A DNA stretch of 64,000 bases, taken from the NCBI RefSeq assembly GCF_013167455.1, contig NZ_CP038328.1, one strand, 5' to 3'. The position numbers were made by a program, and so were the translations under genes. The stretch is from Escherichia coli O157:H7. Its GTDB lineage: Bacteria; Pseudomonadota; Gammaproteobacteria; Enterobacterales; Enterobacteriaceae. Below, piece after piece: positions 16,338-26,167 of the stretch. Position 1 is the stretch's first letter; each line of letters starts with the position of its first letter. A model generated the notes under the pieces. That model saw only the letters and a list, made by a program, of their open reading frames with translations, was not told the DNA's origin and ran no database searches.

Positions 16338-16546
16338 GTTATCACCAATCAAAAGGATGTGAATACGCCTCAGGAATGTGGCGCTGAATGCGCGACAAAA
16401 GGTGTTTTCTGTTTGTGTTTTTTCTCCTGATACATCGCGATATCGGCAGCATGTAGGGCACTGTCTGCATCGGTCGTTTCAGGATCGACTTCTACTATGC
16501 CAAGACTGGCACCAGGATAATACAAATCAACATCACCTAAGTGATA

Positions 16547-17524
16547 TTATCCGCGTATTTGCTGCTGAATGCGTTCTCGCAGCGACGAAATATCCGCATT
16601 CTCGTTGTTTAGTGAAACAACCAAAAACTCATCACCGCCGAGACGACCAATAACTTCGCCATTTTGCTGGAGCGTATTAAGGCGCTCGCCAACCTGAATG
16701 AGAAACAGATCGCCACTATTATGACCAAAACGATCATTGATTAATTTGAAGTTATCCAGATCGATAAACGCGATCATTATCTTTTGGTTAAGATGCCGGG
16801 CGAGGGAAAACAGCGTCGTCAGATTTTCAAAAATCGCCCGCCGATTCGGTAGCCCGGTTAACGAGTCGGTATACGATTGCGCAATCAGCGCAGCATTGGC
16901 TTCGCGCAGCTGTTCAACCAGTGCCTCTTTTTGAATATATTGTGCAATCAGTCCGGCGAATAACTGTAAAACCTGTTCCGCGCGTTCACTCCACTGGCGC
17001 TTCTCACTGCTGGCGGCGCAAAGCGTGCCATAGAATGATCCATCCGGTAAGTGAATTGGCGTGCTCAGAAATGTGGTGATGCCAAGATTGCGTGCCGCAA
17101 TACAGTCGCCCCAACGGTCAGGGACTTCATCGCTGAAAAAGCAGTTTTCATCAATGGCGCGTTTGCATAACGAGTAATCCCACGAGACGGTAAAATTCTC
17201 CGGGATGTGCATTTTCTGGCTGTTACGGGCAAACATAATATGCTGCAGGCGCGCTTCGACATCCACTTTGGTCAGGTAGGTTGATTCCATATCAGTGACC
17301 ATTTCCAGCATCTCCAGAAGCTGTCGGACCAGACTTTCCAGTGACTGTTCTTTGGCAAGGGATTGCGAGATGCGGGCGATAATCTGATCTGACACGAAAC
17401 AACTCCAGGATACGGCGGGTAAATGCTGATTATTTAATCTTTGCAGGCATGATAAAACATCATCAACAAAGATGAAACAAGACGTAATATGTTTTGAGTG
17501 AATGTAATAAAAATAGTGCTGCAA
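16547..17524 (-). CDS. dgcP: Diguanylate cyclase DgcP (YeaP), GAF-GGDEF
   Basis: 325-aa ORF from a TTG start; intact GGDEF active site (RLGGDEFLV); true start uncertain. Confidence 0.8.
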   Translation of the reverse strand: MQHYFYYIHSKHITSCFIFVDDVLSCLQRLNNQHLPAVSWSCFVSDQIIARISQSLAKEQSLESLVRQLLEMLEMVTDMESTYLTKVDVEARLQHIMFARNSQKMHIPENFTVSWDYSLCKRAIDENCFFSDEVPDRWGDCIAARNLGITTFLSTPIHLPDGSFYGTLCAASSEKRQWSERAEQVLQLFAGLIAQYIQKEALVEQLREANAALIAQSYTDSLTGLPNRRAIFENLTTLFSLARHLNQKIMIAFIDLDNFKLINDRFGHNSGDLFLIQVGERLNTLQQNGEVIGRLGGDEFLVVSLNNENADISSLRERIQQQIRG

Positions 17525-18255: not shown

Positions 18256-19437
18256 TTAGCGAATTTCTTTGTCTCTCCCGGCACAAAGTCCGAAAATCGC
18301 CATCAGTAGTGAAAGTATTGCAACACCCATTAGTGGTACGGACCAGTCACCGTTAGCATCGTGTATTTTACCCATCAGCGGCGGCCCACAGGCTGCCAAC
18401 AAATACCCGACGGATTGTGCCATCCCCGAGAGTGCCGCCGCCTGATGCGCAGAACTAGCCCGCAGACCAATGAACGTCAACCCCAGTATCATTGTTGCGC
18501 CGGAACCAAAACCGAAAAGCAGAGTCCAGGTGATCGCGTGCGCTGGCATGAAGCAGAGCCCAACCGCGCCCACTGCGCACATCAAGGCAACGAACGCTGC
18601 AATACCACGCTGGTCTTTCACATGATGTAAGAAAAGTGGGATCAGCAAACCGGGAGCTGCTGTGGCTAGTTGCAGCAAACCATGCAGTGAACCCGCCTGT
18701 GCTTCGCTATAGCCGTGACTGATGAGGATCGCCGGAAGCCAGCCAATAATCACGTAATAGACCAGTGAGTTGATCCCAAGAAACAATGTTACCTGCCAGG
18801 CAAGCGGCGAACGCCAGATACCCCGAGTATGTAAGGCGCGTGAAGTACTCAAATTTGCATGTTGTTGGCTTCGCCACTGTGGCAGCCATAAAAAAAGAGC
18901 CAGCAGAGGAAAACACATCAGCATGAGCAACGCGCCTTGCCAGCCAAAACCGTTCAAAGCCAGCGGCACTACCATAGCCGATCCCAGAGCCGCCGCAGCT
19001 CCCATTGTCAGGGAATATGCGCCGGTAAGTCTGGCGACGGAATGAGGGAAATCGCGTTTAATTAATCCTGGCAGTAAGACATTACCTAATGCAATCCCAC
19101 CGCCAATGACCGCTGTACCGCCAAATAATAAGTAAGGCGAAGGGAGAGAGCGAATTGCGATACCTGCACAGATCAAAAGTAACGCGGCAAACAGGCTACG
19201 TTCCATACCAAAACGTCGAGCCACCGGGGCAGCCAGAGGTGAGATTAGCGCAAAGGCCAATAATGGCAGGGTGGTCAATAAGCCGGTTTGCGCAGTCGTC
19301 AGCGAGTAAGCGGAACGAATCGTATCGAGTAACGGTGCTGCGCCGGTGAAGGTGACGCGTAATGTAGTGGCAATCATCAGAATGCCAGCGATAAGGACAA
19401 TCCTGTTTTTGCCGCTTAATGAAGTTGAACAGGTCAT
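18256..19437 (-). CDS. yeaN: MFS transporter YeaN (NimT)
   Basis: 393-aa 12-TM ORF. Confidence 0.75.
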   Translation of the reverse strand: MTCSTSLSGKNRIVLIAGILMIATTLRVTFTGAAPLLDTIRSAYSLTTAQTGLLTTLPLLAFALISPLAAPVARRFGMERSLFAALLLICAGIAIRSLPSPYLLFGGTAVIGGGIALGNVLLPGLIKRDFPHSVARLTGAYSLTMGAAAALGSAMVVPLALNGFGWQGALLMLMCFPLLALFLWLPQWRSQQHANLSTSRALHTRGIWRSPLAWQVTLFLGINSLVYYVIIGWLPAILISHGYSEAQAGSLHGLLQLATAAPGLLIPLFLHHVKDQRGIAAFVALMCAVGAVGLCFMPAHAITWTLLFGFGSGATMILGLTFIGLRASSAHQAAALSGMAQSVGYLLAACGPPLMGKIHDANGDWSVPLMGVAILSLLMAIFGLCAGRDKEIR

Positions 19438-19533
19438 ATGCTTCTCATTGTTACAAACGAGGCTGTACCTTACCGTTTTTATTGTTATGTTGAATCAAGC
19501 TAAAATGACAAATTATCGCTAAATTCGGACAAA

Positions 19534-20355
19534 ATGATGCACAGGTTGAATCTCAATGGCTATGAACCCGACCGACACCATGAAGCCGCGGTCGCATTTT
19601 GTATTCACGCCGGAACGGATGAGTTAACCAGTCCTGTACATCAGCACCGCAAAGGACAGCTGATACTGGCGCTACATGGTGCAATTACCTGTACGGTGGA
19701 AAATGCTTTGTGGATGGTGCCGCCACAATATGCGGTTTGGATACCGGGCGGGGTGGAACATAGCAATCAAGTGACAGCTAACGCTGAACTCTGTTTTCTG
19801 TTTATCGAACCCAGCGCAGTGACAATGCCGACAACATGTTACACATTGAAAATATCGCCCTTATGCCGGGAATTAATTTTAACTCTGGCAAACAGGACGA
19901 CGACTCAGCGTGCTGAGCCGATGACCCGCAGATTAATTCAGGTCCTGTTTGATGAACTCCCTCAGCAGCCACAACAACAGCTGCACCTACCCGTTTCTTC
20001 TCATCCTAAAATCCGCGCGATGGTGGAGATGATGGCGAAAGAGCCCGTCGAGTGGGGGGCATTGGGGCAATGGGCTGGCTTTTTTGCGATGAGTGAACGC
20101 AATCTTGCCCGACTGATAGTAAAAGAGACGGGGTTGAGTTTTCGCCAGTGGCGACAGCAGTTACAGCTGATTATGGCGCTTCAGGGATTAGTGAAAGGCG
20201 ATACTGTACAGAAAGTTGCTCATACGCTGGGGTATGATTCAACAACGGCCTTTATTACTATGTTTAAGAAAGGCCTGGGGCAAACGCCAGGCCGATATAT
20301 TGCGGGATTAACTACTGTTTCCCCACAATCAGCGAAACCAGACCCGTGGCAATAA
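19534..20355 (+). CDS. yeaM: AraC-family transcriptional regulator YeaM (NimR)
   Basis: 273-aa ORF with cupin N-terminus and AraC HTH C-terminus; divergent from yeaN. Confidence 0.75.
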
Positions 20356-21578: not shown

Positions 21579-23069
21579 TCATGAACGGCTGTTTTTGTTC
21601 TGCTTATTGACATATAAACGCTCATCGGAAGCTTTATACGCATCATGTAACGTATCGTTTTCTTTCATCGCGTAAATACCGGAAGAGAAGCCGATCTCTT
21701 TCTGCGGCGCGATATGTTGCAGACGTTTTTCGATACGTTCAGGCAGTTGTGCTGCAATTTGCGGCGTCGAATCGACAAGAATGATGCAGAATTCATCGCC
21801 ACCGAGTCGGATGGCATAATCACTTTTACGAATCGATTGTTTAATCGCCTGAGCTAACAACGTAATCGCTAAATCCCCTTCCTGATGACCGAGGGTGTCA
21901 TTTATTAGCTTTAACTTGTCCATGTCAATTGCAATAAACATCACCGAAGAACCGGATTGCACCAGTTTCTGCAACCGCTGCTCCAGTTCAGGGGTTAAAA
22001 TTTTGCGATTATACAGTCCAGTCATCGCATCACTAATATTTTCTCGCGACACATTTTGGTATAAGCGGAAGTGCATCCGCACCATATTCAGCAAAATTAA
22101 CGCCGTCAAAATCCAGAACAGAACGCTTTTCCACGAAGACGTGATAAAGTAAAGAATATCAATGGATAACGAGACACGAATGCCGCCCGGTAAGTCATGG
22201 ACGTAACTGACATACTGGAACAGATTATCTTCGCTCTGGTTGATGATAATGTCGCGCCCCGAATCTGTATCGGTTAGCGTGACATTGAGAAAACGCCAGA
22301 GGAGAGGGCGGTCATGAGTGTAAAAGATATTCCGCAGATTGTTTTTGTTAATATCCAGCAGCACAATCCCTTTTAGCTGCCCTGCAACATACACCGGCGT
22401 CAGCAAACTCATCACGTTCTGTTTAGTACGCTGATCCTGGTAAATGCTCGACAATACGGTACGCCCGGTAAATACCTTTTCAATATCTTTGCGATCGATG
22501 CCAATACTTCCTGACTGCAGGATGGACCAGTTATTCATCGCAAAGTATTCAACATTAACCGGCTCATAAAAATAGACATAGCGGTCATTGAGATCGAGAT
22601 AATAGTGAAATTTCTCTTCGGCCATCCCAAGACCTGAACCGTAATCATCCTGGTGGCGGTTGCCTTCCACTGCCTGATCAAAAGCGGGTAATAGTGCTGC
22701 AGCTTCCACAATTGTGTCGCAGTCAGTGGATGCGGTTTGTAATGTGCCGCGTAAGCCCGGGTATTTATGGGCAGTCAGGTTTAAGCCATGGGTATTATTG
22801 GCAGACTCAAAAGCCTCGCAGATGGCGCGCCGCTGTTCTGGCGACACTTCCGACTGCTCAGCAGCGAGAGCGCGCATCACATGCGCGGCAATACTCTGAT
22901 TCTGATACTTATCATAAAGAAAGGAGGAGTCTGCTTTCTGCACGATATAGCGCAGATAGGCACTCATTGCTCTGTCGCTGGCGACAAGTTCAAAAATAAG
23001 GAAGGAAGATGTCAGCACAATGACACTTGCGGCGATAAAATGCCGGAGCATTCTATGGTGCAATTTCAT
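21579..23069 (-). CDS. dgcJ: Diguanylate cyclase DgcJ (YeaJ)
   Basis: Start at MKLHHRMLRHF gives 496 aa; GGDEF motif (RLGGDEFCI); ORF track extends 60 codons further upstream. Confidence 0.8.
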   Translation of the reverse strand: MKLHHRMLRHFIAASVIVLTSSFLIFELVASDRAMSAYLRYIVQKADSSFLYDKYQNQSIAAHVMRALAAEQSEVSPEQRRAICEAFESANNTHGLNLTAHKYPGLRGTLQTASTDCDTIVEAAALLPAFDQAVEGNRHQDDYGSGLGMAEEKFHYYLDLNDRYVYFYEPVNVEYFAMNNWSILQSGSIGIDRKDIEKVFTGRTVLSSIYQDQRTKQNVMSLLTPVYVAGQLKGIVLLDINKNNLRNIFYTHDRPLLWRFLNVTLTDTDSGRDIIINQSEDNLFQYVSYVHDLPGGIRVSLSIDILYFITSSWKSVLFWILTALILLNMVRMHFRLYQNVSRENISDAMTGLYNRKILTPELEQRLQKLVQSGSSVMFIAIDMDKLKLINDTLGHQEGDLAITLLAQAIKQSIRKSDYAIRLGGDEFCIILVDSTPQIAAQLPERIEKRLQHIAPQKEIGFSSGIYAMKENDTLHDAYKASDERLYVNKQNKNSRS

Positions 23070-23249: not shown

Positions 23250-24593
23250 TTAAATATGATGAATAATCACTTTGTTGCCCCCCTCGCTTTTCGCTTCGCG
23301 TAAGGCTTTATCTGCTTCCGTCATGACAAGCGAGATATTACGCGTGTCACCCGTTGAAAAAACTGTGCCAATACTGATGGTCATTTGTTCAGGAACATCA
23401 TATCTGTTACTAAAGCCGGTCAGGAGTTCGACATTTTTACGCATACGTTCCGCAATGATTTTTGCCTGGGCACTATTGAGTTCGGTAAATAGCAAGCCAA
23501 ACACCTCACCCTCCAGTCGCGCTAAAATATCATCGGGGCGGATGCTTTGCTGGATAATATCGACAATTGAAACCAGCACTTTATCACCCACACGATGTCC
23601 CCATTGGGCATTGATGCGTTTGAACTGATTAATATCAACCAGCATGACACAGAAGTCCTTAACAACAGGTCGCGACAATAATGACTCTACGCTGTTGAAA
23701 AAGTAGCGCCGATTATAAATATTGGTCAGCACATCATGAACTGCCAGTTTGCTGGAGAGTTGCAGCTCCTGAAAAATGTTATAAATCAGAAAAGACACAA
23801 CAAACAGTTTACTGGAGACTTCAATCCCGCGACTGATATACCAGATGGTATAATTATACTCATCCAGAGTCAGTAGAAGTAAGTTGCAGCATAGCGATGC
23901 CAGACATAATAATGCTATTAACGGCCATAGTTCGCTGGCTAATCGTGTACGCATGATAATAAAGAACAGTAAAAATGCCCACAGACAAACCAATATTTTT
24001 GTATAGTTGATTCCCCAGGTCGCAGTATGATTGTCCGGACAGTAATCGACGACATACAAAGAATAGTCAGCGTTATAACTGCTCAGATTGTGTGCCAGAA
24101 GGGGAAAAACTAAAAAAGGGATCAGCGCCAGCAACAGAATGCCAGTTTTTTTCTTATTGTTGTCAAGGATGTTGTCTTTTCCATAACAAAAGAGCGCCAG
24201 CGAGGTTAAACAAATAAAACTGAGTTGGCGGAAAATATAGAAAATAGAAACATCATTCGACTTTGTCTGGATCAGTGTACTGCCGTTAATTGGTTTATGG
24301 ATAATTACAATGGTTTCAACTAAATAGATAAGGCCACTTAAAAATGCAAGGCTTAAAATGAGTGTTGGTAAAATTTGTTTGTTAGTGAAATATTTCATTA
24401 ACATGAAAAGAAAAATGACGGCGTTAAGGAAAAACAAAGCCACAACAACCATCAGGTAATTCATCTGTGGGATGAGTTTTACATTTGTGTTTTCGTTATA
24501 TAAGGTAGTAATGCAAAATAAAATTAACGTCAGCAATAAACTGAAAATAAAAAAGCTTTGAGCTTTTAATTTTTGTGTACCCATAGAAACCAT
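23250..24593 (-). CDS. cdgI: Degenerate GGDEF-domain membrane protein CdgI (YeaI)
   Basis: 447-aa ORF; multi-TM N-terminus; GGDEF signature replaced by EGEVF (RLEGEVFGLLF); very AT-rich coding sequence. Confidence 0.75.
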   Translation of the reverse strand: MVSMGTQKLKAQSFFIFSLLLTLILFCITTLYNENTNVKLIPQMNYLMVVVALFFLNAVIFLFMLMKYFTNKQILPTLILSLAFLSGLIYLVETIVIIHKPINGSTLIQTKSNDVSIFYIFRQLSFICLTSLALFCYGKDNILDNNKKKTGILLLALIPFLVFPLLAHNLSSYNADYSLYVVDYCPDNHTATWGINYTKILVCLWAFLLFFIIMRTRLASELWPLIALLCLASLCCNLLLLTLDEYNYTIWYISRGIEVSSKLFVVSFLIYNIFQELQLSSKLAVHDVLTNIYNRRYFFNSVESLLSRPVVKDFCVMLVDINQFKRINAQWGHRVGDKVLVSIVDIIQQSIRPDDILARLEGEVFGLLFTELNSAQAKIIAERMRKNVELLTGFSNRYDVPEQMTISIGTVFSTGDTRNISLVMTEADKALREAKSEGGNKVIIHHI

Positions 24594-24871
24594 AAAAAGG
24601 AGAGCAATGTGAGTGCTGGATTTTATTGATGGCAGAGATATATAGTTTTGACCAGGATCAATTTTCGTTAACGATAAAAAATATTTAAAGAATAACCCCA
24701 GGGAAATACGTGTTGACAGAATAATTTTTCCGAATGATTGTTTTCTGGAACTAAATTGTGTAAAGGTTATGCTGTCATATTTAAAGCGATTGTAAGCTAA
24801 TGTATGTAATAAATGAGATAACTTACAGTGAGCTAAAAATCAGCCAGGCGATAATGACCCGGCTGATAGTT

Positions 24872-26167
<1,296 letters not shown>

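Follow-up and report, generated by a model that had tools for sequence, protein, structure and literature searches.

The cdgI (yeaI) gene of Escherichia coli O157:H7 raises a question of length. In the 64,000-nucleotide stretch of O157:H7 DNA analysed here (hereafter, the window), the open-reading-frame listing gives it an ATG start and a product of 447 aa, whereas the annotation of its K-12 MG1655 counterpart, b1785, gives 491 aa. A first-pass annotation of the window put the K-12 length at ~491 aa, correctly, and left two possibilities: either that figure was wrong or the sequence differed at its 5′ end. It also described the product as a GGDEF-domain protein with a degenerate motif, encoded by markedly AT-rich DNA. 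Which start codon is the genuine one, what the protein does and how old the composition of its gene is are the subjects of this work.

The cdgI locus and its degenerate GGDEF domain

The locus is cdgI of the E. coli O157:H7 chromosome, a known gene. The genes on the minus strand are arranged in the order yeaG, yeaH, cdgI (yeaI), dgcJ (yeaJ), yeaK ... yoaF, dgcP (yeaP), and both sequence identity and the conserved slot between yeaH and dgcJ identify cdgI as an ortholog of the K-12 gene. The 1.8-kb region containing it matches O157:H7 chromosomes at 100% identity and a K-12-type one (strain AML001_par) at 99.0%; of 5426 complete E. coli genomes, 5424 have a version of the region. The K-12 protein CdgI/YeaI (b1785, UniProt P76236) is encoded at the same locus and shares the MASE4 and GGDEF domains and the EGEVF and RPDD motifs, and its gene has the same FNR box. 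Across the 491 annotated K-12 codons the two sequences align with 99% identity. The possibility that cdgI is a decaying pseudogene in O157 was considered and rejected, since the open reading frame is intact and its core is under purifying selection (see below).

Three GGDEF-domain genes lie close together, as had been noted at first sight, their span being ~8.2 kb. The catalytic motif is kept in dgcJ and dgcP, also in agreement with the first-pass annotation; dgcP is nonetheless a pseudogene in the window strain. Its codon 283, GAA in K-12, is a premature TAA here, which had been overlooked. Coordinates of all features are collected in Table 1.

Table 1. Features of the cdgI locus and of the neighbouring GGDEF genes, in window coordinates
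Feature	Position	Strand	Remarks
cdgI (yeaI), conserved CDS	23250..24593	-	447 aa + stop; equals Sakai annotation ECs_2494
MASE4 integral-membrane sensor domain	23769..24464	-	residues 88-319 (491-aa numbering); Pfam PF17158, E = 1.4e-48
GGDEF domain	23271..23744	-	residues 328-485; Pfam PF00990, E = 9.2e-45
Degenerate A-site E405-G-E-V-F409	23499..23513	-	replaces GG[D/E]EF
Intact I-site R396-P-D-D399 (RxxD)	23529..23540	-	five residues before A-site
Ala373	23607..23609	-	replaces conserved Asp of ...IND..GH motif (alignments)
Met48 ATG (K-12 numbering)	24582..24584	-	alternative start giving 444 aa; sole candidate start codon invariant in 9/9 orthologs; alignment columns A297 T298 G299
44-codon N-terminal extension of the 491-aa K-12/PGAP annotation	24594..24725	-	most likely non-coding promoter + leader
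Candidate -10 hexamer TAAAAT	24620..24625	-	22 nt after FNR-type box
FNR-type box TTGATCCTGGTCAA	24648..24661	-	consensus TTGAT-N4-ATCAA; sole match in window
Terminator-like hairpin + T-run	24839..24867	-	after yeaH
dgcJ (yeaJ)	21579..23069	-	GAPES1 + GGDEF; RLGGDEFCI; intact
dgcP (yeaP)	16370..17395	-	GAF + GGDEF; RLGGDEFLV; pseudogene here, TAA at 16549-16547

The match of CdgI to PF17158 covers profile positions 5-237 of 239. The GGDEF domain scored 152.7 bits against PF00990 (cutoff 23.8) and matched solved diguanylate cyclases at E = 4e-22. The translation over the motif region contains IRPDDILARLEGEVFGLLF. Alignment with solved cyclases and 15 homologs revealed that two residues of GG[D/E]EF, the Gly at position 1 and the Glu at position 4, are substituted, so that a significant GGDEF match goes together with a degenerate A-site. 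Spurbeck 2012 gave the corresponding YeaI sequence as KNAHDREGEVF, compared to canonical KNDHDRGGDEF. CdgI therefore lacks both sequence hallmarks of an active cyclase, the GG[D/E]EF A-site and the substrate-binding Asp. The I-site is properly spaced, with R396-P-D-D399 followed by ILARL and then by EGEVF, and all 16 aligned sequences share R396 and D399. A literature search with the motif string EGEVF returned no matches.

Seven orthologs in the yeaG-yeaH-X-dgcJ context were found in E. albertii, other Escherichia-like genomes and one Citrobacter-like genome; for those on short contigs, synteny was judged on the part of the context covered by the contig. Escherichia-type orthologs carry EGEVF, EGDVF, EGNVF, EGEEF or EGKRF, with motif positions 3 and 4 drifting freely (E/D/N/K and V/E/R, respectively) while RxxD is invariant. 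Citrobacter-like orthologs at the cdgI locus (57-62% identity) share the I-site but retain GGEEF and IND; these proteins, P0020 (locus L008, 62%) and P0024 (57%), are presumably active cyclases. P0020 also matches cdgI in its position between yeaH and dgcJ, in the FNR box and -10 element and in AT-richness. The comparison points to an A-site decay specific to the Escherichia-type branch, on which catalysis appears to have been abandoned, positions 3 and 4 drifting afterwards and the I-site staying fixed. The closest E. coli relatives according to the literature, DgcT (YcdT) and DgcX, have the same MASE4-GGDEF architecture but, unlike CdgI, are reported to keep the catalytic motif and to make c-di-GMP. 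Neither was identified among the CdgI homologs retrieved.

CdgI is thus an inner-membrane MASE4 and GGDEF protein with a decayed A-site and a kept allosteric RxxD I-site. This combination makes it most likely a c-di-GMP-binding receptor or regulator and not a cyclase, the function that the first-pass annotation had proposed from the motif. The literature agrees. The purified GGDEF domain of K-12 CdgI binds c-di-GMP (Sarenko 2017, PMC5635695, Fig. S4); the A-site was described as degenerate and the I-site as intact, and the domain interacts strongly with other GGDEF domains (PMC5635695; Richter 2014, PMC4287979). CdgI may act by heterodimerising with such domains.

Some names and phenotypes suggest that CdgI has kept diguanylate cyclase activity, EGEVF notwithstanding. 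Its RefSeq name is 'sensor domain-containing diguanylate cyclase', and earlier K-12 work counted YeaI as a cyclase (as cited in PMC6824119 and Spurbeck 2012), whereas both Sarenko 2017 and the curators of the MG1655 record, who use the name 'putative c-di-GMP binding protein', place it among the proteins that bind c-di-GMP. The biofilm defect of a CFT073 delta-yeaI mutant was complemented by the cyclase WspR in no-salt LB, but in glycerol medium WspR failed to complement (Spurbeck 2012). With three catalytic or substrate-binding residues replaced, and with the drift of the A-site in Escherichia orthologs next to an invariant RxxD, we consider retained cyclase activity very unlikely.

The start codon and the 44-codon extension

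The difference between 447 and 491 aa arises because the ATG start codon of K-12 is ATT in O157:H7 (window 24725-24723), a single-base difference. A further in-frame ATG of K-12, at codon 9, is CTG in the window. Together the two changes leave no canonical start upstream of 24593, where the frame remains open for 82 codons with no ATG, GTG or TTG. The first-pass annotation was therefore right that an in-frame upstream start is missing and that the sequence may differ at the 5′ end, although what differs is probably not a real truncation, the extension behaving as non-coding DNA. Alignment to K-12 yeaI revealed one more N-terminal change, CAG to CTG at codon 3; all three changes fall within the stretch that appears to be non-coding, and K-12 is neither identical in sequence nor annotated from the 447-aa start.

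Of the 5426 complete E. coli genomes, 319 carry the ATT allele; ATG at codon 1 (ATG1) is present in about 94% of E. coli genomes. Among the matches listed, all 60 ATT genomes were O157:H7, O157, O55:H7 or unserotyped genomes of similar size (5.3-5.8 Mb). The allele is annotated inconsistently: PGAP often assigns 491 aa with an ATT start, and Sakai is annotated with 447 aa.

Homologous proteins in other genomes are 443-448 aa long and start at Met45 or Met48. The Met45 position is GTG in E. albertii, and locus L008 is without Met45. Of the seven loci with non-E. coli orthologs, five (E. albertii L003, plus L004, L006, L007 and L008) have the frame closed by in-frame stops 10-22 codons upstream of Met45, and the alignment of the extension across orthologs also shows frame-shifting indels.

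Polymorphism of the extension and of the core was compared in nine E. coli genomes. The 44 codons of the extension contain 7 segregating sites, none synonymous and 7 nonsynonymous, distributed over codon positions 1/2/3 as 1/4/2, with a density of 0.053/nt. In the 447-codon core, 33 of 38 segregating sites are synonymous and 5 nonsynonymous, the distribution over codon positions is 3/3/32, and the density is 0.028/nt. The enrichment of nonsynonymous changes in the extension is significant (Fisher p = 1.7e-5), and its polymorphism density is like that of intergenic DNA (0.055/nt). The core, with 32 of 38 sites at third codon positions, is under purifying selection.

No recognisable Shine-Dalgarno sequence precedes Met45 or Met48; a GGA is located 5-7 nt upstream of K-12 ATG1. 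Given that the extension evolves unlike coding DNA, the genuine product most likely has 447 aa, or 444 aa if translation begins at 24584, where the ATG is invariant. In K-12, the annotated 491-aa start is probably a fortuitous upstream ATG, and the ATT change in the O157:H7/O55:H7 lineage, which would then fall upstream of the promoter discussed below, is probably neutral and not a truncation.

A putative FNR-type promoter within the annotated reading frame

The stretch annotated as the extension contains an FNR-type box, TTGATCCTGGTCAA, that matches 9 of 10 specified consensus positions. A single match in 64 kb falls short of significance (one seen, 0.58 expected, 32 of 100 shuffles with at least one), so the case for an FNR site rests on conservation and on published ChIP data. 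The box, TTGAT-N4-(A/G)TCAA, is conserved in 9 of 9 orthologs, including those in which the frame is closed, and has no mismatch to the consensus in L007 and L008, the two most distant ones. A TA(A/G)AAT hexamer follows 22 nt downstream of it in all nine (21 nt in E. albertii). This spacing fits class II geometry, with the box centre near -41.5 of a predicted transcription start around 24613-24617, which would lie ~20-24 nt upstream of Met45 and 29-33 nt upstream of Met48.

A generic sigma-70 scan of positions 24500-24900 gave one weak candidate, TTTACA-16-AACAAT (24764-24737), at chance level. TAAAAT was not flagged because it is without a -35 hexamer, as expected of an activator-dependent promoter. 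Genome contigs were scanned with the pattern TTGATCNNNNRTCAA, which has one N too many: it returned 38 unrelated chance matches and left the window itself unmatched. The correct pattern for the module of FNR box and -10 element is TTGATNNNNRTCAAN{18,19}YAATARAAT. Further upstream, in the yeaH-cdgI intergenic region, TACATTAGCTTACA (24791..24804, minus strand) resembles an RstA box and may be one.

In K-12, FNR peaks were detected by both ChIP-seq and ChIP-chip on the exact site, listed as 'Within yeaI' (Myers 2013, PMC3688515, Tables S5/S6), and more FNR was bound there when hns and stpA were mutated (Tables S5-S7). The locus thus resembles class II FNR-activated promoters both in the position of the box relative to TA(A/G)AAT and in being occupied by FNR in vivo. 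It differs from them in that no FNR-dependent change of yeaI expression was observed in the one condition tested, glucose minimal medium (Myers 2013, Table S9, PMC3688515), and in that it lies within an H-NS-bound region. The annotated extension is probably promoter and leader DNA with a conserved class II FNR-type promoter.

These observations bear on the opposite account of the length difference, that 491 aa is real in K-12 and that the O157:H7/O55:H7 lineage lost the start codon. On that view, EHEC would produce either little CdgI, through weak initiation at ATT, or a shorter isoform with altered function. The prevalence of ATG1 in E. coli, the GGA that precedes it and the preference of PGAP for 491 aa even with an ATT start agree with such a loss. 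A sigma-70 ChIP peak ~80 bp upstream of ATG1 (Myers 2013 Table S2, PMC3688515) also means that a K-12 mRNA including ATG1 could arise from an upstream promoter. A functional extension is difficult to reconcile, however, with seven nonsynonymous and no synonymous polymorphisms at an intergenic-like density, with stops and frame-shifting indels in E. albertii and four other orthologs, with homologs and paralogs that all start at Met45 or Met48, and with an FNR site inside it that is occupied in vivo (PMC3688515). Loss of a genuine start codon is, in our judgement, improbable. We are fairly confident in the explanation as a whole: a degenerate c-di-GMP receptor, made as a 447- or 444-aa product from an FNR-type promoter, with a neutral ATT allele and an old AT-richness.

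AT-richness, H-NS binding and expected expression of cdgI

The AT-richness of yeaI and its flanks, claimed from inspection, is evident in windowed GC content. The GC content of cdgI is 0.383-0.389 compared to a window mean of 0.496, which makes it the most AT-rich gene-sized stretch: among windows of 1476 bp, less than 1% have a lower value, and the 15 lowest all overlap cdgI. The minimum, 0.316 at 24250-24749, falls over the 5′ end of cdgI and the DNA upstream of it. Syntenic orthologs have a GC content of 0.356-0.392, in loci of 0.41-0.48.

Low GC with respect to surroundings (0.38 against 0.50) could be taken as a mark of recent horizontal acquisition into E. coli, and the gene was predicted to be foreign by Nakamura 2004 and by Lawrence & Ochman 1998 (compiled in PMC3661553). 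A recent arrival would be expected to show a patchy distribution or lost synteny; cdgI is instead near-universal in E. coli, no mobile-element genes flank it, and the same slot is occupied in E. albertii, other Escherichia-like genomes and one Citrobacter-like genome, down to 62% protein identity. Because these syntenic orthologs are equally AT-rich, any acquisition predates the Escherichia/Citrobacter-like split, and we regard recent transfer as highly improbable. Less improbable, but still unlikely, is the idea that the low GC follows simply from what the gene encodes, a membrane protein with much Phe, Ile, Leu, Asn, Lys and Tyr. First and second codon positions are indeed low (GC1 0.42, GC2 0.31), and the membrane half is below the GGDEF half (0.352 vs 0.439). 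Yet GC3 is depressed too, at 0.42-0.44 compared to 0.48-0.64 in 11 neighbouring genes, among them nimT and yeaL for membrane proteins, and the amino acids encoded therefore cannot explain the bias in full; moreover, the non-coding DNA upstream is the most AT-rich part. The AT-richness of cdgI appears to be old, maintained and ancestral, with no sign of recent transfer.

The first-pass annotation had suggested older horizontal acquisition or H-NS silencing, which is supported by the equal AT-richness of orthologs and by H-NS binding in K-12. H-NS was bound over yeaI in all three ChIP studies compiled, and the gene holds a 'promoter island' with H-NS binding (PMC3661553, Table 1 for the ChIP data). 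CdgI was undetectable in standard conditions, and its overexpression was toxic (Sarenko 2017, PMC5635695). AT-richness thus goes together with H-NS binding and near-silent expression. Overproduction of AppY raised yeaI RNA-seq counts from 1, 9 and 6 to 62, 243 and 259, with an 11-fold AppY ChIP enrichment over the gene (PMC10057817). RstA binds a yeaI promoter fragment in EHEC O157 (PMC6824119), and repression of CdgI by CsrA is cited in Sarenko 2017 (PMC5635695). Taken with the FNR box, the AppY, RstA and CsrA data suggest anaerobic or stress-specific expression from an H-NS-silenced locus, and cdgI may be expected to be expressed in anaerobic or AppY-inducing conditions. A further proposition is that the K-12 start is off by 44 or 47 codons, that a class II FNR promoter lies in the annotated frame, and that CdgI is an anaerobiosis-specific c-di-GMP receptor, silenced by H-NS and opened by FNR and AppY; we hold the chances for and against it to be evenly balanced.

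CdgI and its degenerate motif were already known, and c-di-GMP binding, near-silent expression and H-NS binding have been published for K-12. The locus reveals no new kind of system, and the outcome is mostly annotation housekeeping. What the analysis adds is a minor annotation insight: it explains the length discrepancy and gives evidence that the annotated K-12 start lies too far upstream, the reading frame thereby running across a conserved FNR promoter. The conflict between the 447- and 491-aa annotations in K-12, Sakai and PGAP is accounted for, with the shorter form evolutionarily supported; a non-native N-terminus may accordingly be present in CdgI constructs, tags and topology models that assume 491 aa. 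If CdgI is an anaerobic receptor, the ATT allele of O157 would be a neutral marker and not a loss of function, and the 'still-unknown conditions' in which this orphan effector is made would be named. The link between the FNR box, AppY and H-NS offers a concrete growth condition, anaerobic culture, preferably of an hns/stpA or AppY-overproducing strain, for an effector that has so far escaped detection in the laboratory.

Signals inside and upstream of cdgI

In K-12, a sigma-70 ChIP peak lies inside cdgI at +889 from ATG1, the annotated start of the 491-aa gene, with a 26-fold anaerobic rise (Myers 2013, PMC3688515, Table S2). The published K-12 summit of AppY ChIP is also found inside the cdgI coding region, at +844 (PMC10057817), and the two signals coincide when placed on the window. 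A perfect TATAAT in sense orientation, within cdgI codons E-Y-N-Y, adjoins both. This site could act as a promoter within the gene, directing transcription into the GGDEF-encoding portion of cdgI and into dgcJ.

Intergenic sequence between yeaH and cdgI contains TACATTAGCTTACA, which we take to resemble the RstA box. This putative element is partly conserved in the closer Escherichia orthologs (alignment A3). Binding of RstA to the yeaI promoter was reported in EHEC (PMC6824119), and the RstA-like box is consistent with that result.

Positions of features in the window
Feature	Position	Strand
dgcP (yeaP)	16370-17395	-
Premature TAA, dgcP codon 283	16549-16547	-
nimR-nimT	18256-20355	
Coinciding sigma-70 peak and AppY summit	~23836-23881	
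TATAAT in cdgI	23858-23853	-
ATT of the O157 cdgI allele	24725-24723	
TACATTAGCTTACA	24791-24804	-

Premature stop in dgcP and the nimR-nimT position

The dgcP gene retains the RLGGDEFLV motif. A premature TAA, where K-12 has GAA, removes the final ~59 residues of its GGDEF domain, and the gene is labelled 'internal stop' by PGAP, the RefSeq annotation. The exact TAA-bearing 41-mer was present in at most 141 complete genomes; O157:H7 strain E32511 is one base away from it. The stop therefore probably marks a sub-lineage of O157:H7 only.

In E. coli, the nimR-nimT pair is flanked by yeaL and yeaO. The same position in E. albertii (locus L003, 7834-8725) and in locus L004 (7836-8726) is devoid of the pair, and in the Citrobacter-like locus L008 yeaL is followed by an AraC-type regulator paired with an MFS transporter.

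Annotation and loss of cdgI

PGAP calls for one O157 cdgI allele differ between RefSeq records: in many the protein begins at ATT and is 491 aa long (WP_024165563.1), while the annotation of Sakai, the O157:H7 reference, gives 447 aa. The product is named 'sensor domain-containing diguanylate cyclase' in some records and 'GGDEF domain-containing protein' in others, and in PV15-279 the upstream stretch that begins with this ATT is without any annotated feature.

Among matches to the cdgI region in complete E. coli genomes, 2 of 5427 places are plasmid-borne. IS1 or IS200C insertions within or adjoining cdgI were observed in some E. coli strains and a frameshifted cdgI in one (both from matches H10 and H18 and L055), and the gene is wholly deleted in S. 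flexneri (PMC11327459). Thus, cdgI is dispensable in some lineages, though overall it is under purifying selection.
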